Shown piece after piece: positions 27,892-59,392 of a stretch of 64,000 bases of DNA (position 1 is the stretch's first letter; every line of letters starts with the position of its first letter). The notes below the pieces were generated by a model. It was not told where the DNA came from and searched no databases. It worked only from the letters and a program-made list of their open reading frames with translations. Location: positions 686 to 64,685 of the forward strand of contig CAXIBC010000005.1 of assembly GCA_964022115.1 (NCBI GenBank). Reading direction: 5' to 3'. The position numbers and the translations under genes were made by a program. This DNA is from an uncultured Oleispira sp. (lineage in GTDB: Bacteria; Pseudomonadota; Gammaproteobacteria; Pseudomonadales; Oceanobacteraceae).

Positions 27892-28533
27892 ATGGATACT
27901 ATCGTTCGCTTTTTTCAAGAGGGTGGCACTTTTATGTACCCAATCGGTGTGGTTTTAGCGATTGGATTAGCGGTGACACTGGAACGCTTTATTTTCTTAA
28001 CTCGTGAGAAAGCATCTAATCGTCGGTCATTTGAAGACGTATTGCCTATGCTGCAAAAACGTGATTTTCGCGCTGCACTTAATTATACCAATTCATCGGA
28101 AGCTAAAATCTCGACGATTTTTTCTGCCGGTATTAACCGTATACCTACCGGGCGCCGAGATGATATTGAGCTGGCCATGGAAGAGGGTGTGATGGAGGCT
28201 ATTCCTCAGTTAGAAAAACGTACTCAATACATTGCAACGCTTGCCAACATAGCAACATTAATGGGGCTATTGGGCACCATTATGGGTCTGATCTCTGCGT
28301 TTACCGCGGTGGCTAATGCAGCCCCTGCCGATAAAGCGACCTTGCTTTCGCAGTCTATTTCTGTGGCGATGAATACAACGGCGTTTGGTTTGATGGCCGC
28401 TATCCCACTCTTGTTATGCCATACCTTCTTACAAACTAAAACAAACGAAATTATCGATAGTATCGAGATGGCGGGTGTTAAGTTTTTGAATATCGTGACT
28501 GAGCGCAAGCCGAATACCAATAAAGAAGGTTAG
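27892..28533 (+). CDS. exbB: MotA/TolQ/ExbB-family proton channel protein
   Basis: 213 aa, three TM segments. The conserved C-terminal TM pair is LATLMGLLGTIMGLISAF ... TAFGLMAAIPLLLCH. Confidence 0.9.
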   Translation: MDTIVRFFQEGGTFMYPIGVVLAIGLAVTLERFIFLTREKASNRRSFEDVLPMLQKRDFRAALNYTNSSEAKISTIFSAGINRIPTGRRDDIELAMEEGVMEAIPQLEKRTQYIATLANIATLMGLLGTIMGLISAFTAVANAAPADKATLLSQSISVAMNTTAFGLMAAIPLLLCHTFLQTKTNEIIDSIEMAGVKFLNIVTERKPNTNKEG

Positions 28534-28546
28534 TGGAGTAGTTGTA

Positions 28547-29065
28547 ATGAGACGCCATAAAAGAATAAAACAAGAGGCGGATCTCGATATTACTTCCTTC
28601 ATGAATTTAATGATCGTACTGGTGCCTGTGCTATTACTGAATATGGTATTTGCACAAACAGCGGTATTGGATCTTAAATTACCATTAGGGGATTCTGTCG
28701 GGGGCGCTAACCCTGAAGATGTATCTGTAGAAGTTACTATTCGTACCACCGGTATGCAGGTGGTTGTGGCCGCTGGAGGCGCATCACGCTTAGTGGGTGA
28801 TATTCCAAAAGTAAATCAGATTCATAATTATAAAAAGTTATCCGAAGTATTACAGCAAGTTAAAAAAGGTTTTCCTGATAAGAAAGACGTCGTTCTATTA
28901 TCAAGCCCAGAGGTGAATTATCAGACCTTGGTTGAGGTTATGGATACAGCGCGAACCTTTGAAACTGTGGTAGCAGCCTCTGTCGTTGATGCAGTACTGT
29001 TCCCTGAAGTCTCACTTGGCGATGCGGTAGCGCTTGCACAAGCAACTGCGGAGGGTGCGCTATGA
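28547..29065 (+). CDS. exbD: ExbD/TolR-family protein (copy 1)
   Basis: N-terminal DITSFMNLMIVLVPVLLL, with the conserved Asp just ahead of the TM segment. Periplasmic alpha/beta domain. Follows exbB. Confidence 0.88.
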   Translation: MRRHKRIKQEADLDITSFMNLMIVLVPVLLLNMVFAQTAVLDLKLPLGDSVGGANPEDVSVEVTIRTTGMQVVVAAGGASRLVGDIPKVNQIHNYKKLSEVLQQVKKGFPDKKDVVLLSSPEVNYQTLVEVMDTARTFETVVAASVVDAVLFPEVSLGDAVALAQATAEGAL

Positions 29066-29559
29066 AAATGTCAAAGCGTGCTAAACGCATGAAGCGTAAT
29101 CATAAGCGTAATGCGCAAAAGTCGGCTTTAAACCTCACGGCTTTGATGGATATCTTTACCATTTTGGTTTTCTTTTTGATGTTGAATCAAAATGATTCTG
29201 AAGTGCAAAATAACGATGCGATTCAGTTGCCAAAATCCATTGCGGCCAATGAACTAAAAGATACGGTGCGGATTTTAGTCACTAAAGATGATGTGCTGGT
29301 TCAAGGTCGTCCCGTTATTAAAATGGCAGCGGTTTCGAGTATGGAAGGCGAAATTATTCCTGCTTTGAAAAAAGAGCTGGATTATTTAGCCATACGATCT
29401 CCTTTGCCTCTTGAGCTAAAAGAATTAGGGCGACCTATTACTATTATGGGTGATAAGGATACGCCGTATGCTGTGCTTAAGCGGATTATGGATACCTGTG
29501 CGAAAGCCGAATTTAATAATATCTCTCTGGCGGTCAGTCAAAAAGGGGAGGCTAGTTAA
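29062..29559 (+). CDS. exbD: ExbD/TolR-family protein (copy 2)
   Basis: LNLTALMDIFTILVFFLML, ExbD-like size. ATGA overlap with copy 1. Confidence 0.88.
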   Translation: MKMSKRAKRMKRNHKRNAQKSALNLTALMDIFTILVFFLMLNQNDSEVQNNDAIQLPKSIAANELKDTVRILVTKDDVLVQGRPVIKMAAVSSMEGEIIPALKKELDYLAIRSPLPLELKELGRPITIMGDKDTPYAVLKRIMDTCAKAEFNNISLAVSQKGEAS

Positions 29560-38000: not shown

Positions 38001-38939
38001 CTTATAGAGCAGTTTGAAGGGGTTGGGCAAGCTCAAGCAACGGTATTAACGGATAAAGAATTTGATCGTACAGAGATTAAACAATGGGATTTTTCTAGCT
38101 TACCTAAGGTCACTGAGCGTGAGCTGCAAGGTTTAAAAGTTCGCATGTTTCCGATGTTAATCGATCAGCAAAGCCATGTTGATATGACCTTGCACTCTGA
38201 TGAAGGTATTGCAGAGTTGTCGACGCGACAAGGGATTATTCGTTTATTGCGCTTATCTTTACCTGGGCTTGATAAAGACTTGCGTAAAGAGCTGCGCTTG
38301 CTCGACCCTGTGATGCCTTATGCTCAAGGTTTAACCTCTAAGCAAGCGCTTTATAATGATGTATTGGATGCGTGTTATAACCTGTGCTTATTAGCGGATG
38401 ATGATTTGCCTAGAAGTGAGGAAGAATTTCAACAGTGCTTGGATAAACGCGCAGACTTGCATAAAACCTTGCTTGATATAATCGATTGGTTGAAGCGTAT
38501 TTTACCCGCGAGACATCAGATTTTTAAACAAATGAAGGGTCAAACTACGATTGACCGTGCCTTTGCTTATAGTGATATTAAAGCTCAGCTAGGCGAGTTG
38601 TTTGCTGAGCACTTTATCGTACAAACTCCATGGCAGTATTTGAAGAATTATCCGCGCTATCTCGATGGCATCTTGTATCGCTTGGATAAGCTGCAGGGGC
38701 AATTGCAGCGAGACAGGTTACGCATTGCTGAAGTCGATGAGCTCGTTCAGCTGCATCAAGCCGCGGTAAAGCAGTTGGGTATACCTTTTTACGCCAACCC
38801 TGAGTTGTTGCATTTTTATTGGTTATTGCAAGAATTGCGGATGTCATTATTTGCTCAGCCCTTGGGAACGAGTGAGCCAGTTTCCAATAAACGATTACGT
38901 CAAAAATGGAATGATATCAAGCTTCAGCTGTCTCTATGA
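35004..38939 (+). CDS. hrpA: ATP-dependent RNA helicase HrpA (DEAH-box)
   Basis: 1311 aa. GETGSGKTTQLP, IIDEAHERS, TNVAETSLTVPG and QRRGRCGR. The long C-terminal extension is typical of HrpA. Confidence 0.95.
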   Translation: MSQNNELDRQALKQAVQQCLAKDKFRFNRDLQTIFSLVQQGKPVDKKLAKLLAAIERSQRALALRQTQLKLDYPESLPVSQKREAILTALRENQVIIIAGETGSGKTTQLPKLCLELGLGQAGTIAHTQPRRLAARSVANRIAQELEVEMGQEVGCQVRFSDQTSERTRVKLMTDGILLAQTQHDKFLSEYDCIIIDEAHERSLNIDFLLGFLKQLLPRRPDLKVVITSATIDLQRFSDHFDQAPVIEVSGRTFPVEDRFRPLVRESEDDTDLTLQEGILHGLQELAEQDRINQQAGDVLVFLPGEREIRECAEYLRKVIVNDRSLRNSQILPLYARLSVSEQGKIFTESVGRRIILATNVAETSLTVPGIRYVIDSGVARISRYSYRSKVQRLPIEAISQASANQRRGRCGRVADGICIRLFSEEDFLSRPEFTEPEIQRTNLAAVILQMISLKLGDIHQFPFVDAPDARFIKDGFNLLQELEAVSSSGKEARFTLTDLGRQMSRLPVEPRISRMLLQAKKQHALREVLIIAAALSVQDPRERPADKKQAADQKHKELAHEESDFLSYVNLWDAFEEQRQALSNSQLRKWCQKHFINYMRMREWRDIHKQLSILCREMDFKFNTEAASYENVHKSLLAGLLSHIAQKEEGAEYLGARQRKLQIFPASGLYKKRPKWIVAAELMETSRLYARTVAKIDPQWLEQLAKPLLRKSYFEPHWSKKRGQVIAYEQTSLYGLIINPKRAIDYSRIKMAEARNLFILQGLVANNIDLNAKFFQHNISLIAELAELEEKTRTRSYVVEDAVVGHFYDEHIPTDVASVISLRAWLKKEKSEEEKLYLTKEYLLKQSEDSVTDALYPSYFSYQGISFPLSYAFSPGAKDDGVSMTVPASVLGQISVDQADWLVPGFIKDKCIALLKGLAKPIRKQLVPVPNTVDEFLRTAHPNEGGLFPQLIQFLYANYRIKIELETLRDIPLDDHFKMNYQVVDDEKIVGQGRDLSQLIEQFEGVGQAQATVLTDKEFDRTEIKQWDFSSLPKVTERELQGLKVRMFPMLIDQQSHVDMTLHSDEGIAELSTRQGIIRLLRLSLPGLDKDLRKELRLLDPVMPYAQGLTSKQALYNDVLDACYNLCLLADDDLPRSEEEFQQCLDKRADLHKTLLDIIDWLKRILPARHQIFKQMKGQTTIDRAFAYSDIKAQLGELFAEHFIVQTPWQYLKNYPRYLDGILYRLDKLQGQLQRDRLRIAEVDELVQLHQAAVKQLGIPFYANPELLHFYWLLQELRMSLFAQPLGTSEPVSNKRLRQKWNDIKLQLSL

Positions 38940-39016
38940 GGTTAGATGATTGAAGCTTTCTCTATATTTAGTGAACTTTTTAATGGTACTTTGTACTAAC
39001 AGAATATAAGGTTGGA

Positions 39017-39052
39017 TTGCAGGATAATTTATTAGCTTGCACTATCCTGTAA
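39017..39052. promoter_or_regulatory. Imperfect 10-bp inverted repeat upstream of the repeat-peptide gene (candidate operator)
   Basis: ttgcaggata (39017-39026), 16-nt spacer, tatcctgtaa (39043-39052). 9 of 10 positions are complementary. It lies 23-65 nt upstream of the start codon. Confidence 0.3.
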
Positions 39053-39074
39053 TAACGCATAAAAAATTAAGGAC

Positions 39075-39482
39075 ATGGATATGACAACATCAACAGCAAA
39101 ACCTCTAGCGACAGTTTTAGGCGCAGCGTTTGTTACGGCTATGGCTCAAGCACCTGCTACTCAAGCCGCTGAAAACCCTTTTGCGACCACTGAATTACAA
39201 ATGGGTTATAAGGTTGCAGCGCATCACGAAGGCAAATGCGGTGAAGGTAAGTGCGGTGGCGATAAAAAAGCCAGTAAAGAAGGCAAATGCGGCGAAGGTA
39301 AGTGCGGCGAAGATAAAAAGTCCGCTCGAGAAGGCAAATGCGGCGAAGGCAAATGCGGTGAAGGTAAGTGCGGCGAAGATAAAAAAGCCAGCAAAGAAGG
39401 CAAGTGCGGCGAAGGTAAGTGTGGTGGTGATAAAAAAGCCAGCAAAGAAGGCAAATGCGGCGAAGGTAAGTGCGGCGCTTAG
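39075..39482 (+). CDS. Secreted Cys-repeat peptide: Sec signal peptide plus 11 (E)GKCG motifs. Candidate RiPP precursor of the bufferin/HvfA-like metallophore type.
   Basis: MDMTTSTAKPLATVLGAAFVTAMAQAPATQAAENPF..., then five modules: EGKCGEGKCG(G/E)DKK(A/S)(S/A)(K/R), one with three motifs, and a last one ending in GA*. The AAGGA RBS favours the second ATG at 39081. An MNIO/DUF692 gene follows 38 nt downstream. Confidence 0.85.
   Translation: MDMTTSTAKPLATVLGAAFVTAMAQAPATQAAENPFATTELQMGYKVAAHHEGKCGEGKCGGDKKASKEGKCGEGKCGEDKKSAREGKCGEGKCGEGKCGEDKKASKEGKCGEGKCGGDKKASKEGKCGEGKCGA
39228..39479 (+). repeat. Five tandem coding modules (51, 51, 66, 51 and 33 nt) built from the 15-nt unit gaaggYaaRtgYggY
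   Basis: Read directly. The copies differ almost only at synonymous third positions. The region is open in all six frames. Confidence 0.95.
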
Positions 39483-39520
39483 TTTGCTGCATTGCTTTAC
39501 TATTGAGTTAGGAGATCTTA

Positions 39521-40375
39521 ATGCCAAGCTATCCAGTTAGTGGTGCAGGTCTCGGATTAAGACGGGCCCTTTTGGGTCCGTTATTGTCTGTGGGCCCTGA
39601 ACAGATTGATTTTATGGAAGTCGCTCCCGAAAACTGGATAGGTGTCGGTGGTCGTCTTGGAAAGGAATTTCGTCGTTATAGCGAACGCTTTGATTTTTTA
39701 TGCCATGGATTATCATTGTCTATTGGCAGTCCTGACCCGTTGGATATCACTTTTATTCAACAAGTACGTGACTTTATGAAGCTGCATGGCATTAAGGCCT
39801 ATAGTGAGCACCTGAGTTACTGCAGCAGTGAAGGGCATATGTATGACCTAATGCCGATTCCTTTTACGGAAGAAGCTGTGCACCATGTGGCGCAAAGGAT
39901 TAAAACCGTACAAGATATTATTGAGCAGCCGCTGATTATTGAGAATGTCTCGGCGTATGCCCAGCCAGGGAAAGAGATGGAAGAAATTGATTTTCTAAAG
40001 GCTGTGATTGATGAATCTGACTGTCGTTTATTACTTGATGTGAATAATGTTTTTGTAAATAGTACTAATCATGGTTTTGATGCAAAGGCGTATTTAAGCA
40101 AAATTCCTACGCATAAAATTTCTTACCTGCATATTGCTGGGCATTATGAAGAAGCCCATGACCTGTTAGTCGATACCCATGGGGCAGAGGTTAAGCAGGA
40201 TGTATGGGATTTACTGGATTTCACCTATCAACAGCATGGGGTGATTCCAACCCTGTTGGAGCGCGACTTTAATATCCCTAGTGTCCCTGAGTTATTGTCG
40301 GAAGTCGATGTGATTAAGCGTCTTCAGCTAAATCATGGTGGCAGCATGGGAGAGTATGATGCTAAGCAAGCCTAA
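39521..40375 (+). CDS. DUF692/UPF0276 protein = MNIO (multinuclear non-haem iron oxidase, MbnB-like) RiPP-modifying enzyme
   Basis: GAGLGLRR, IDFMEVAPENW, HGLSLSIGS, YSEHLSYC, LIIENVSAY, LLLDVNNVFVNSTNHGFD, YLHIAGH, LVDTHG and PTLLERDFNIP form the characteristic DUF692 TIM-barrel block pattern. Confidence 0.9.
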   Translation: MPSYPVSGAGLGLRRALLGPLLSVGPEQIDFMEVAPENWIGVGGRLGKEFRRYSERFDFLCHGLSLSIGSPDPLDITFIQQVRDFMKLHGIKAYSEHLSYCSSEGHMYDLMPIPFTEEAVHHVAQRIKTVQDIIEQPLIIENVSAYAQPGKEMEEIDFLKAVIDESDCRLLLDVNNVFVNSTNHGFDAKAYLSKIPTHKISYLHIAGHYEEAHDLLVDTHGAEVKQDVWDLLDFTYQQHGVIPTLLERDFNIPSVPELLSEVDVIKRLQLNHGGSMGEYDAKQA

Positions 40376-41144
40376 ATTTATCCAGCTGCAGCAAACGTTT
40401 GCCAACCATATCAAAAACCCAGATAAAGTCGGTCGTCCCCAAGATGTTGATGATCGTCATATGCGCATTTATCGAGATTTGTTTTTTAATAATGTAATGG
40501 GATTTCTCAATAGTGCCTTTCCCGTTTTGGCGGAAATTATCGGTGAGCAACGCTGGCATCAAATTGGGCGAGATTTTTTCTCAAGACACCATAATAAAAC
40601 CCCTTATTTTCTACAAATATCGGCTGAGTTTCTGAGTTATTTAAAGCATGAGTACCAGGGGCAAGCCAGTGATCCTGATTATATGTATGAGTTGGCTCAT
40701 TATGAATGGTTAGAGTTGTATGTCGATGTTGAGCCTGAAGACCCTAGTTGTAATATAGAAGCGGACGTTCAATGGCAGCTTGATGGTGATGTATTAACTG
40801 CTATTCCCTTTCTTTCCCCTGTGGTTGAAGGTTGTCTCTACCAATATCCTGTGCATCAGATTTCAGTGCAAAACCCCTCACCAGAAGCGCGAGAAAGTGC
40901 CCTTATAGTATATCGAAAGCGTGATGATAGTATCGGCTTTGCCGAAAGCAATGCCTTCACCTTACAGTTATTAGAATTACTTAAGCAGCAGAGTATGACA
41001 GGGCAGCAGCTGATCGATACATTACTCAGCCAGACAGGGCTAGCAGGTAATGAAGCAGCCTATCATGGTGGTAAGCAGACGTTAGAACAGTGGCGACAAC
41101 TGGGGATTATATGGGGAGTGGTGGTCAATGATTCGGTCACTTAA
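40356..41144 (+). CDS. DUF2063-family protein (MNIO partner / substrate-recognition subunit)
   Basis: FIQLQQTFANHIKNP...DDRHMRIYRDLFFNNVMGFLNSAFPVLAEIIGEQRWHQIGRDFF is the typical DUF2063 N-terminal domain. Overlaps the DUF692 stop by ~20 nt. The start could also be 40335 or 40359. Confidence 0.82.
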   Translation: MMLSKPKFIQLQQTFANHIKNPDKVGRPQDVDDRHMRIYRDLFFNNVMGFLNSAFPVLAEIIGEQRWHQIGRDFFSRHHNKTPYFLQISAEFLSYLKHEYQGQASDPDYMYELAHYEWLELYVDVEPEDPSCNIEADVQWQLDGDVLTAIPFLSPVVEGCLYQYPVHQISVQNPSPEARESALIVYRKRDDSIGFAESNAFTLQLLELLKQQSMTGQQLIDTLLSQTGLAGNEAAYHGGKQTLEQWRQLGIIWGVVVNDSVT

Positions 41145-41199
41145 GGCGTGCCGCACTTATTTTGAAGCTAATATTTAATAGCCGTTAAATTAGGAGAAG

Positions 41200-41799
41200 A
41201 TGATGTCCATTATAACCTTAGGTCACTGGTTTCACGACCAGTTAAATATGACGCGTAAACTTGATGCTATTGCTCCATTGGCTTTGAGGCTCTATTTATT
41301 TTTTCCTTTTTGGATGGCTGGAACTAGCAAATGGGCGCATTTTGATAATACCGTCGCTTGGTTTGGTAATGCTGATTGGGGCTTAGGCTTACCCGCGCCT
41401 ATGGTATTGGCTTTCTTAGCGACCTGGACTGAAATTTTAGGCGCGCTATTTCTGTTGCTTGGATTTGCTACTCGGTATATTACGCTGCCGTTAATGATTA
41501 CTATGGTGGTCGCGATCTTTGCTGTGCATTGGCCTAATGGTTGGGCTGCGATTGCTGATGGTGCTGCGGATGCAGGGGTTGCCGAAAGAGTTGCGGCGGC
41601 GCGGTCAATTCTACAAGAGCATGGTCATTATGCTTGGTTAACTGAAAAGGGTAATTTTGTCATTCTCAATAATGGTATTGAGTTTGCGGTTACCTACTTA
41701 ATTATGTTGTTATCTCTGTTCTTTACCGGCGCAGGTAAGGTTGTCAGTTTAGATTATTGGCTTGCTCGGTATTTTAAAAAGCAGCCAGCCGATCGCTAA
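41200..41799 (+). CDS. DoxX-family integral membrane protein
   Basis: Four TM helices. LALRLYLFFPFWMAGTSKW ... EILGALFLLLGFATR is DoxX-like. The AGGAG RBS favours the second ATG at 41203. Confidence 0.8.
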   Translation: MMSIITLGHWFHDQLNMTRKLDAIAPLALRLYLFFPFWMAGTSKWAHFDNTVAWFGNADWGLGLPAPMVLAFLATWTEILGALFLLLGFATRYITLPLMITMVVAIFAVHWPNGWAAIADGAADAGVAERVAAARSILQEHGHYAWLTEKGNFVILNNGIEFAVTYLIMLLSLFFTGAGKVVSLDYWLARYFKKQPADR

Positions 41800-41838
41800 A
41801 TAATAGTTAAAGCGTATCGGCCTTTGGTGCTTAATAGC

Positions 41839-42852
41839 TTATTGATCCCAGCCTTGACTATGTTGCTGAACCAGCTGGCTCAGCATTTTGATATGGTCAG
41901 GGTTGTCGTTCAAAGCAGGAATGTAATGATAGTCTTGGCCACCAGCGGCTAAGAAAACCTCTTTATTCTCTAGCTGTATTTCTTCCAGTGTTTCTAAGCA
42001 GTCTGCTGAAAAAGCAGGGCAGATGATGTCGACACTTTTTACCCCGTCTTTGCCCCATTGGGTCAAGGTATGATCGGTATAGGGTTTTACCCATTCTTCA
42101 CGACCAAAGCGAGACTGAAAGCAGCATGCCCACTGGTCGGGTTCTAGGGCTAACTTTTCCGCTAGCAGTTTAGCTGTGCGCCGACATTGATGCTCGTAAG
42201 GATCACCTTTACGGGTATAGCGTTCTGGTACCCCATGAAATGACATGAGCAGTTTTTCACTTTGCCCATGTTCTTGCCATTGTTGTTGGCAGGATTGAGC
42301 TAGGGCGTCAATATAACCAGGGTTGTCGTGAAAGTCTCTAATCCAGCGCATTTCGGGTAGGTGAGGGCACTGTTTTAACAGATCGGATAGCTTGTCGTAA
42401 ATAGCCGCTGTGGTTGAAGAAGAAAACTGCGGATACATGGGCAAAATCAATATCTGTTCTACCCCTTTATGGCGTAAGGCTTGGGCTGCACTTTCGATGC
42501 TTGGGTTGCCATAGGTCATGGCCAGCTCTACTGGAATATCCTTATTGGTATCTGCTTTTAGCTGCTGTTGTAATGCGGCGGCTTGTTTTTTAGAGATAAC
42601 CAATAATGGAGACCCTTGCTTGGTCCAGATGCTTTGATACGCCTTGGCAACGGGCTTTGGTCGAATTAATAAGATGGCACGCAAGACAAACCACCAGATA
42701 AAACGAGGGGCATCCACGACACGTACATCGGATAGAAATTCTTTTAGGTAGGCTTTAACGGCTTTAGGGGTTGGCGCTTCGGGAGTGCCTAGGTTGACCA
42801 TTAAAATGCCAAATTCTTTATTGGTCGATGTCGAACTCTGTTGCTGATCCAC
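41839..42852 (-). CDS. hemH: Ferrochelatase
   Basis: GILMVNLGTPEAPT, LPMYPQFSSSTT, SFHGVP and FQSRFGREEWVKPYT are conserved HemH blocks. Confidence 0.95.
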   Translation of the reverse strand: MDQQQSSTSTNKEFGILMVNLGTPEAPTPKAVKAYLKEFLSDVRVVDAPRFIWWFVLRAILLIRPKPVAKAYQSIWTKQGSPLLVISKKQAAALQQQLKADTNKDIPVELAMTYGNPSIESAAQALRHKGVEQILILPMYPQFSSSTTAAIYDKLSDLLKQCPHLPEMRWIRDFHDNPGYIDALAQSCQQQWQEHGQSEKLLMSFHGVPERYTRKGDPYEHQCRRTAKLLAEKLALEPDQWACCFQSRFGREEWVKPYTDHTLTQWGKDGVKSVDIICPAFSADCLETLEEIQLENKEVFLAAGGQDYHYIPALNDNPDHIKMLSQLVQQHSQGWDQ

Positions 42853-58221: not shown

Positions 58222-58322
58222 TTTATTGCTGCAATTGCATCTGAGTATGGAGCTGGCGTCAAAGCTTGTGCTAAAGTAGCGGCCATAAATCATAATAAGT
58301 TCAATTGTTAGGAGATTATCCT

Positions 58323-58970
58323 GTGTTTGAGATCATCCAGAGTGGCGGTTGGATGATGATTCCGATCATCATTTGTTCAGTTTTAGCGGCAGCAATTGCG
58401 GGTGAACGCTTTTGGACCTTGCGTTCAAGTCAGGTGGCACCGACAGATCTTTTGGGGAAAGTTTGGGGTTGGATGAAAAATAGCCAGCTCAATAGTGAAC
58501 GCATTAAGCAATTGCGCGACAACTCTCCGTTAGGGCGTGTGCTGGCGGCTGGGCTTATGAATTCCAAACACGGCCGCGATATCATGAAAGAAAGTATTCA
58601 AGAAGTCGCGAGTCATGAAATTCATGAAATGGAACGCTATTTAAACGCTCTTGGTACCGTTGCTGCCGTCGCACCCTTGATGGGGTTGCTGGGTACAGTG
58701 ATTGGCATGATCAAGGTATTCTCGGAAATTATGTTAGCGGGAACGGGTCAAGCGGGTATGCTGGCTGGCGGGATCTCTGAAGCGTTGGTAACGACTGCCG
58801 CAGGGTTGGCGATCGCCATTCCAGCGTTAATTTGTCACCGTATGCTGCAGCGTCGTGTTGATGAACTCGTGGTCTTTATGGAGCAAGAATCTTTAAAATT
58901 AGTGGATGTTTTGCACGGTGAGCGTGAAGTTGTAGAAAGCCCAGAAAATAAGCCGGCGGTTGGAGTTTAA
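58323..58970 (+). CDS. exbB: MotA/TolQ/ExbB-family proton channel protein (second copy in the window)
   Basis: Three TM segments. LGTVAAVAPLMGLLGTVIGMIKVF and GISEALVTTAAGLAIAIPALICH. GTG at 58323 with a GGAG RBS; the track ORF starts at the TTG at 58305. Confidence 0.88.
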   Translation: MFEIIQSGGWMMIPIIICSVLAAAIAGERFWTLRSSQVAPTDLLGKVWGWMKNSQLNSERIKQLRDNSPLGRVLAAGLMNSKHGRDIMKESIQEVASHEIHEMERYLNALGTVAAVAPLMGLLGTVIGMIKVFSEIMLAGTGQAGMLAGGISEALVTTAAGLAIAIPALICHRMLQRRVDELVVFMEQESLKLVDVLHGEREVVESPENKPAVGV

Positions 58971-58972
58971 TT

Positions 58973-59392
58973 GTGAATTTTAAACGTCAAAATAAAGAAT
59001 CGGTGGAAGTGAACCTGACACCCTTGATTGACGTCGTATTCTTGCTATTGATTTTCTTTATGGTCTCAACGACCTTTACCAAAGAAAATCATTTGAGCAT
59101 TGATCTGCCAGAAGCTAGTGCAGAACAACAGCCAGTAGCGAGCAATCGATTAGAAATTATTATTACCGCGGCGGGCAGTTATTCAATTAATGATAAAAGC
59201 TTAATCAATAATCAATTAGATACCCTTAAGCGAGGTTTGCTGAAAGCGGCTAATGGTGAAAAAGATTTGCCTGTTACCATTACGGCCGATGCGAATACGC
59301 CTCATCAAGCTGTGGTTCGAGCCATGGATGCGGCGGGCCAAACTGGCTTTGTGAATCTCAGCATTACTACCCGTCAAGCTAGCGCCGAATAG
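58973..59392 (+). CDS. exbD: ExbD/TolR-family protein
   Basis: VNLTPLIDVVFLLLIFFMV, with the conserved Asp. 139 aa. Confidence 0.88.
   Translation: MNFKRQNKESVEVNLTPLIDVVFLLLIFFMVSTTFTKENHLSIDLPEASAEQQPVASNRLEIIITAAGSYSINDKSLINNQLDTLKRGLLKAANGEKDLPVTITADANTPHQAVVRAMDAAGQTGFVNLSITTRQASAE

Follow-up and report, generated by a model that had tools for sequence, protein, structure and literature searches.

A probable hvfABCX operon with an 11-motif EGKCG precursor peptide in the core chromosome of an uncultured Oleispira

Gene content and family membership of the cluster

Which system is encoded by the four genes that occupy positions 39075–41799 of a 64,000-nucleotide (nt) stretch of DNA from an uncultured Oleispira sp. 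(contig CAXIBC010000005.1; the whole stretch is called the window below)? The original prediction, made from the sequence alone, proposed a Sec-exported metallophore peptide whose Cys residues are converted by a multinuclear non-haem iron oxidative enzyme (MNIO). This core proposal is supported by family profiles, with the individual functions following by homology. The locus is very probably a functional hvfABCX operon (a 'captophorin' or Buf_EGKCG/oxazolin cluster) that belongs to the core chromosome in an Oleispira-type gammaproteobacterium. It is an ordinary copy of an already characterised and very common system, real but not new. The evidence presented here concerns gene content, family membership, the conservation of catalytic and specificity residues, synteny and the conservation of a promoter motif; chemistry, export, copper binding and regulation are inferred from characterised homologues.

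As predicted, four co-directional and tightly packed open reading frames (ORFs) were found on the forward strand:

39075–39482, + strand: hvfA ORF, 135 residues from the first ATG
39521–40375, + strand: hvfB, 284 residues, MNIO (formerly DUF692)
40356–41144 (ORF start 40335 or 40356), + strand: hvfC, DUF2063 N-terminal domain and NGO1945_C/RRE domain
41200–41799, + strand: hvfX, 199 residues, DoxX-family membrane protein

The predicted spacing was seen as well: hvfA and hvfB are separated by 38 nt, and the start of hvfC overlaps the end and stop codon of hvfB by 17–20 nt. The ribosome-binding site of hvfB, TAGGAGATCT, is highly conserved.

Profile searches placed the DUF692, DUF2063 and DoxX genes in the families to which they had been assigned, both in Pfam and above the curated cut-offs of NCBIfam. 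HvfB matches PF05114 (MbnB_TglH_ChrH) over the full profile length (E = 8.7e-102) and scores 432.8 bits on the HvfB equivalog model NF003818 (cut-off 360), and it falls below the cut-offs of the related models for BufB (NF050167, 263.3 bits; cut-off 310) and MbnB (TIGR04159, 47.9 bits; cut-off 325). HvfC combines PF09836 (DUF2063, E = 2e-24) with PF22106 (NGO1945_C, E = 6.9e-24) and reaches 262.5 bits on the HvfC equivalog model NF050145 (cut-off 142). HvfX matches PF07681 (DoxX, E = 1.1e-20) and the HvfX model NF050144 (239.2 bits; cut-off 80). The best solved structures are 3BWW for HvfB (E = 4.4e-73) and 3DEE (NGO1945) for HvfC (E = 4.2e-9).

The residues on which the enzyme family depends are retained in HvfB. 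Ten residues at metal-ligand or catalytic positions (H62, H97, E141, D173, N176, H204, D218, H220, E247 and D249) are invariant in 81/81 orthologues. At the specificity positions, R14 is present in 77, R15 in 79 and F250 in 78 of the 81 sequences. HvfB residues R14/R15, D249 and F250 correspond to R15/R16, D249 and F250 of FonB, which set specificity for Glu-x-Lys-Cys-Gly, the Arg pair and the Phe residue setting the preference (PMC12668002). Moreover, the site-3 residues N175, D242 and H244, shown by mutagenesis to be essential in HvfB of non-typeable Haemophilus influenzae (NTHi; bioRxiv 10.64898/2026.07.17.739211), correspond to N176, D218 and H220 of the window enzyme, all of which are invariant.

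The precursor differs slightly from its first description, which was of a secreted 135-residue protein with a mature part made wholly of 11 GKCG repeats. The signal peptide and the 11 motifs that hold every Cys residue stand, the former on sequence features and a modelled helix. The length and the word 'wholly' do not. The second ATG, at 39081, is the likelier start: an AAGGA ribosome-binding site lies directly against the first ATG (39075), and the genes annotated on two near-identical contigs (L081 and L082) open with MTTSTAKP. The likely product therefore has 133 residues rather than 135, and 20 residues precede the repeat array:

39081–39167, + strand: predicted Sec signal peptide of HvfA, residues 1–29 of the 133-residue product
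39168–39227, + strand: conserved N-terminal segment of the exported peptide, AENPFATTELQMGYKVAAHH, 20 residues ahead of the array
39228–39482, + strand: core and stop codon, 11 EGKCG motifs in five units

The predicted signal peptide contains Lys7 and a hydrophobic core at residues 8–22 (Kyte–Doolittle value ∼2), and its cleavage context is T-Q-A|A. All of 24 homologues have Ala29, and residues 9–22 form a helix in the AlphaFold model. In HvfA, a Sec signal peptide recognised from these sequence and model features replaces the classical leader of a ribosomally synthesised and post-translationally modified peptide (RiPP), a membership feature of the family, and export is predicted. The signal peptides of HvfA and BufA1 have been demonstrated experimentally in the characterised systems (PMC11252979, PMC11626156). 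In the AENPFATTELQMGYKVAAHH segment, N32, P33, F34, L39, G42 and Y43 are invariant in the 24 homologues, and the segment is a candidate HvfC recognition element by analogy with HvfA truncation data (PMC11252979). The core contains all 11 Cys residues of the peptide, each of them inside an EGKCG motif. The motifs are arranged in runs of 2-2-3-2-2 that are spaced by (G/E)DKK(A/S)(S/A)(K/R) linkers, and at the DNA level the array repeats in tandem every 15, 51 and 117 nt, of which 51 nt corresponds to 17 residues. The HvfA-family repeat domain NF050137 matches the precursor in four stretches with 124.4 bits (cut-off 19.5), and no Pfam match was obtained for the precursor.

Several points weigh against transferring the properties of the characterised system to this locus in full. 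The precursor scores 76.2 bits on the strict HvfA equivalog NF050188, below the 95-bit cut-off, and lacks the Cys38–Cys43 disulfide region of NTHi HvfA, which is replaced in Oleispira by an ENPF...EL..GY segment. By these scores, HvfA belongs to the family at the family level only and not as an equivalog of NTHi HvfA. Given the sub-equivalog score and the missing Cys38–Cys43 pair, recognition by HvfC and full modification of the 11 Cys residues, above all of those in the triple run, can only be presumed. An AlphaFold2 model built from a 24-sequence alignment has a mean predicted local distance difference test score (pLDDT) of 42 and a predicted template-modelling score (pTM) of 0.13, with the signal-peptide helix as its only predicted structure; the β-helix copper-storage picture proposed for another member (PMC12452194) is thus not supported by the model for this HvfA. 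The low-confidence model of the repeat region is weak evidence that fits a flexible peptide. Pfam and NCBIfam scans of ∼24 neighbouring ORFs revealed no copper-homeostasis gene and no pair of an extracytoplasmic function (ECF) sigma factor and its anti-sigma factor. Finally, expression, modification, export and metal binding in Oleispira rest on homology.

Synteny, repeat number and genomic context

The conservation of the cluster was assessed in 80 related genome loci around hvfB homologues, 74 of which contain a KCG-repeat ORF. A survey of gene co-occurrence, which the original prediction had proposed, found the A-B-C order with a KCG-repeat precursor directly upstream in most of the 80 loci. 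The closest genomes are representatives of nine other Oleispira species (Oceanospirillales), whose HvfB proteins are 82–88% identical to that of the window; all nine have the full arrangement hrpA-hvfA-hvfB-hvfC-hvfX-hemH, with hemH on the reverse strand. The placement of the window cluster between hrpA and hemH was likewise borne out by profiles (TIGR01967, 1630 bits, and TIGR00109, 339 bits), and malate synthase G lies farther out. The GC content is even across the region (41–47%). Horizontal transfer of the cluster was rejected on the basis of this uniform composition and the conserved synteny, and the cluster is a core chromosomal locus of Oleispira, not an island.

The number of motifs varies widely. 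The nine other Oleispira species carry 6–10 motifs in hvfA, and the 74 precursors carry 2–16 (median 6), so that 11 lies at the 93rd percentile. A homologue search returned 6,912 sequences at E ≤ 0.001 among 8,000 candidates scored, and the top 120 contain 3–20 Cys residues, most often 8. In the HvfA family, 17-residue repeats form variable arrays that hold up to 58 Cys residues, and the usual cluster comprises precursor, MNIO, DUF2063 and DoxX genes (PMC12452194). The description of the peptide as unusually repeat-rich was accordingly dropped; an 11-Cys HvfA is within the known range and not exceptional.

Two near-identical contigs allow the array to be compared between strains (window 39228–39479 compared with L081:1051–1335 and L082:340–741). 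L082, an independent metagenome contig, is 99.3% identical to the window over 4367 nt without gaps, keeps all 11 Cys residues and encodes an HvfA that differs by one Ser/Ala exchange; the same 11-motif peptide in this contig excludes an assembly artefact in the array. L081, from the metagenome-assembled genome (MAG) GCA_041575895.1, is 98.9% identical and encodes the same HvfA minus exactly 117 nt, which leaves 6 Cys residues versus 11. Either genuine copy-number variation among strains or a collapse of short reads accounts for the 117-nt difference; the L081 contig is only 1585 bp long.

Four further ORFs that overlap hvfA, at 39130–39540 (+ strand) and at 39157–39492, 39195–39527 and 39224–39454 (− strand), were rejected as genes and are by-products of the in-frame tandem repeat. 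The ∼24 neighbouring ORFs that were scanned are all of a housekeeping kind and encode ExbB/ExbD, an M23 peptidase, MaoC, hydrolases and an acyl-CoA synthetase, together with malate synthase G, T2SSB, a helicase and an ABC transporter. Two separate ExbB/ExbD-type sets (MotA/TolQ with ExbD/TolR) are located at 27892–29559 and 58305–59392, and neither adjoins the hvf cluster. At the other end of the cluster, the Oleispira MAG L007 retains only a ∼90-nt hvfX remnant between hvfC and hemH (L007:7580–7706). The remnant suggests that the DoxX gene was lost naturally in this genome, consistent with the finding that the bufferin DoxX protein is dispensable for modification and copper protection (PMC11626156).

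Upstream region and regulation

Two elements were identified between hrpA and hvfA:

38973–38999, + strand: ECF (sigma-E/AlgU)-type promoter-like motif GAACTT-N16-ACTAA, 76 nt before the first hvfA ATG
39016–39053, + strand: predicted hairpin in the 5′ untranslated region (UTR), stem TTGCAGGATAA / TTGCACTATCCTGTAA region, conserved in position

The pattern GAACTW-N16-ACTAA occurs once in the window when both strands are searched, with 0.05 matches expected. It is found at the orthologous site before hvfA in 9/9 of the other Oleispira species, as well as in L081 and L082, and was not found in 71 loci of other genera. Among the ten genomes, both elements and the 16-nt spacing are kept, while the spacer and flanks are only 56–62% identical. 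The motif closely resembles the RpoE/AlgU consensus, GAACTT-16/17-TCCAAA/TCTAC (PMC4336711). With somewhat more confidence than doubt, it is put forward from its sequence as the putative ECF-type promoter of the hvf operon, an assignment in line with the ECF control published for the hvf genes of Haemophilus and Neisseria. In H. influenzae, hvf is strictly RpoE2-dependent and is induced by hypochlorous acid (HOCl) alongside methionine sulfoxide reductases (PMC7907618), and the Neisseria homologue is co-transcribed with sigma-E and its anti-sigma factor within the sigma-E operon (PMC2893595).

Three observations count against the assignment. The −10 element, ACTAA, differs from TCTAA/TCAAA. The GAAC −35 element is common to many ECF groups. 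A tblastn search of the window with E. coli RpoE found no ECF sigma gene. A competing reading, that the motif is not an ECF promoter and that the operon is transcribed from a nearer sigma-70 promoter or by read-through from hrpA, is a serious contender that nevertheless falls short of being probable. When the upstream regions are aligned, several orthologues partly share a TATAAT-like block ∼30 nt ahead of the ribosome-binding site; no terminator-like site follows hrpA, a scan for consensus sigma-70 promoters gave no + strand hit ahead of hvfA, and the −10 element departs from canonical TCTAA at its first base. Opposed to this reading are the retention of a hexamer and a pentamer at exactly 16-nt spacing in ten species within poorly conserved flanks, the uniqueness of the motif in the window and the published rule of ECF control for hvf homologues (PMC7907618, PMC2893595).

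In one Oleispira genome (L002), a second GAACTW-N16-ACTAA motif is located just upstream of hvfX (L002:7617–7643) and may be an internal DoxX promoter.

The 5′ hairpin is present in every Oleispira orthologue (L001–L009), beginning 10–17 nt after ACTAA, with a differing sequence and z-scores of −0.4 to −3.4. No Rfam match was obtained in 38800–42000 at E ≤ 1, and a possible role of the hairpin is mRNA stabilisation. An inverted repeat in this region, CAGGATA-N15-TATCCTG at 39021–39049, was considered as a MerR/CueR-like operator and rejected, as its sequence is not conserved in nine orthologous regions; it is reinterpreted, from the sequence comparison, as one instance of the positionally conserved RNA hairpin. 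Another hairpin (39469–39493, −12.8 kcal/mol) spans the last hvfA codons and the hvfA–hvfB spacer. It is matched in L001 and weak in the other orthologues. This non-conserved hairpin might act as an attenuator that raises the ratio of precursor to enzyme transcript.

A broader proposal is offered tentatively, as possible and not as probable: the Oleispira operon would lack a dedicated metal or redox regulator and be wired into the general RpoE/AlgU-type envelope-stress regulon through the promoter and 5′ hairpin, and the number of copper-binding sites would be quickly tuned by gain or loss of 51- or 117-nt repeats.

Product chemistry, physiological role and related systems

By homology, the system is expected to operate as follows. 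Transcription would probably start at the conserved ECF-type promoter upstream of hvfA, and HvfA would be made with its Sec signal peptide. A heterodimer of HvfB, the MNIO with a mixed-valent diiron active form, and HvfC, the RRE-type partner, would act on HvfA in the cytoplasm and convert each EGKCG Cys residue to a 5-thiooxazole by a four-electron oxidation, with a loss of 4 Da per site and up to 44 Da for 11 sites. The modified, still flexible peptide would then leave by Sec, with the signal peptide cut after Ala29. Cu(I) would be bound by the N and S donors of the thiooxazoles in the periplasm and possibly also extracellularly, with about one copper per heterocycle pair or in a looser network, and the peptide would buffer copper under metal or oxidative envelope stress. 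HvfX would be an accessory membrane protein that is unnecessary for modification.

The scheme draws on characterised homologues. In NTHi, all six EGKCG Cys residues of HvfA are modified by HvfBC to give a product that binds Cu(I) (PMC11252979). The active mixed-valent diiron cluster forms only when HvfC is present (10.64898/2026.07.17.739211). Signal-peptide-dependent export, periplasmic copper buffering and protection have been demonstrated for bufferins (PMC11626156), and copper binding through thiooxazoles is described for oxazolin, fontiphorin, gonophorin and bufferins (PMC11252979, PMC12668002, PMC11626156).

Even for oxazolin it is unsettled whether the peptide serves detoxification or acquisition, and this too tells against a firm functional assignment. 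A main role in copper acquisition, as a chalkophore, or in general protection against oxidants (HOCl, H2O2), in place of copper sequestration and detoxification, is considered unlikely here, although it draws on several observations. The authors of the oxazolin study leave acquisition open (PMC11252979); hvf of H. influenzae is induced by HOCl via RpoE2, together with methionine sulfoxide reductases (PMC7907618); the promoter-like motif described above resembles the envelope-stress ECF type and not a CueR/CopR site; and copper genes are absent among the neighbouring ORFs scanned. Against such a role, bufferins improve growth in excess copper (PMC11626156), the clusters are induced by heavy metals and not by copper starvation, the EGKCG products form aggregates with the copper that they bind (PMC12668002), and the cluster, in contrast to methanobactin operons, has no linked gene for a TonB-dependent receptor or for import.

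The original prediction cited oxazolone/thioamide pairs on EGKCG peptides, and this assignment has been revised in the literature. Oxazolin, fontiphorin and gonophorin carry 5-thiooxazoles, the earlier oxazolone/thioamide assignment having been revised by two groups in 2025–26 (PMC12668002; bioRxiv 10.64898/2026.06.05.730506). A product with methanobactin-like oxazolone/thioamide pairs instead of 5-thiooxazoles is very unlikely for the window. It would agree with the first oxazolin assignment (PMC11252979) and with NCBIfam names that still read 'oxazolone/thioamide-modified', and the two isomeric structures share one mass shift. However, the reassignment of EGKCG products by the two independent groups (see also 10.64898/2026.07.17.739211) drew on alkylation-assisted heteronuclear multiple-bond correlation spectroscopy, reactivity with iodoacetamide and an absorbance maximum at ∼305 nm rather than at 340/390 nm, and HvfB of the window reaches 433 bits on its own family model and only 48 on the MbnB model, far from the cut-off of 325.

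It is highly improbable that HvfA works unmodified as a periplasmic metallothionein-like Cys-rich protein beside unrelated enzymes, since unmodified HvfA does bind 2–3 Cu(I) in vitro (PMC11252979) but the precursor lies directly upstream of hvfB/hvfC in the large majority of the 80 loci (with a KCG-repeat ORF in 74), the enzyme retains all catalytic and EGKCG-specific residues, and bufferin function requires modification (PMC11626156).

Among the known systems, the oxazolin cluster of NTHi (hvfABCX; PMC11252979; 10.64898/2026.06.05.730506) shares with the Oleispira locus the same four genes, a Sec signal peptide and paired EGKCGEGKCG motifs, and the window HvfB, HvfC and HvfX exceed the equivalog cut-offs built on the NTHi system. 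The two differ in the lower equivalog score of the Oleispira precursor (76 versus 95) and its replaced disulfide segment, in the number of sites (6 Cys residues in three units in NTHi versus 11 in five), in a ∼20-residue insertion of the Pasteurellaceae enzyme 3BWW that is missing from the window HvfB, and in their hosts, a pathogen versus a free-living marine bacterium.

Fontiphorin (fonABC of Fontimonas thermophila; PMC12668002) resembles the window system in its EGKCG-repeat precursor, which also contains a triple run (2+3+2), and in the matching specificity residues given above, but the fon cluster has no DoxX gene and seven sites instead of 11. Gonophorin (Neisseria ngo/NMB2140–2145; PMC12668002, PMC2893595) has an EGKCG-type precursor, an MNIO, a DUF2063 protein (NGO1945, PDB 3DEE) and DoxX. 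It is under ECF sigma control with the ECF sigma and ZAS anti-sigma genes inside the operon, whereas no sigma gene is located near the Oleispira cluster. The Neisseria promoter also differs, with GTAAGGTT at −35, CGTCTAA at −10 and a spacing of 12–13 nt versus GAACTT-N16-ACTAA in Oleispira. The gene order differs as well: doxX is the last gene in Oleispira and corresponds to the first-numbered gene, NMB2140, of the Neisseria homologue (PMC2893595).

The bufferins Buf1 (DUF2282) and Buf2 (Buf_6/12Cys) of Caulobacter vibrioides (PMC11626156) likewise have a Sec-exported precursor, an MNIO, a DUF2063 protein and an optional DoxX protein, and their 5-thiooxazoles and periplasmic copper binding are features that the Oleispira system may share by homology. 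However, bufferin precursors are small folded proteins that have 4 or 6 Cys residues and lack EGKCG repeats, and with the window enzyme below the BufB cut-off (263 versus 310) the locus falls outside the bufferins. The label 'HvfA/BufA2-type' in the original prediction merged two families that are now kept apart, the Lys-Cys EGKCG and the Cys-Lys Buf_6/12Cys peptides (PMC12452194, PMC12668002). In the methanobactin system (MbnA/MbnB/MbnC), as is expected for the window system, an MNIO turns Cys into a copper-binding heterocycle by a four-electron oxidation. Methanobactin differs in its oxazolone/thioamide product, its leader-peptide precursor, its dedicated export and import genes and its partner protein, MbnC instead of a DUF2063 protein, and the window enzyme (48 bits on MbnB; cut-off 325) does not belong to this family.

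Publications since 2024 cover the family with its enzymes, chemistry and typical gene neighbourhood, and all four genes are already named by standard annotation pipelines. The locus opens no new question. MNIO-PME1 loci, in which PME1 is the HvfC-type partner, number >24,000, occur in about half of the Pseudomonadota reference genomes and are among the commonest RiPP classes (PMC12668002). With this locus, a cold-marine, oil-degrading genus is added to those that carry this very widespread system of copper-binding peptides. Two modest leads emerge, a genus-wide ECF-type promoter motif and a difference in repeat number between near-identical strains, and the natural 11-site substrate with its triple EGKCG run may be used for testing the processivity of HvfBC.

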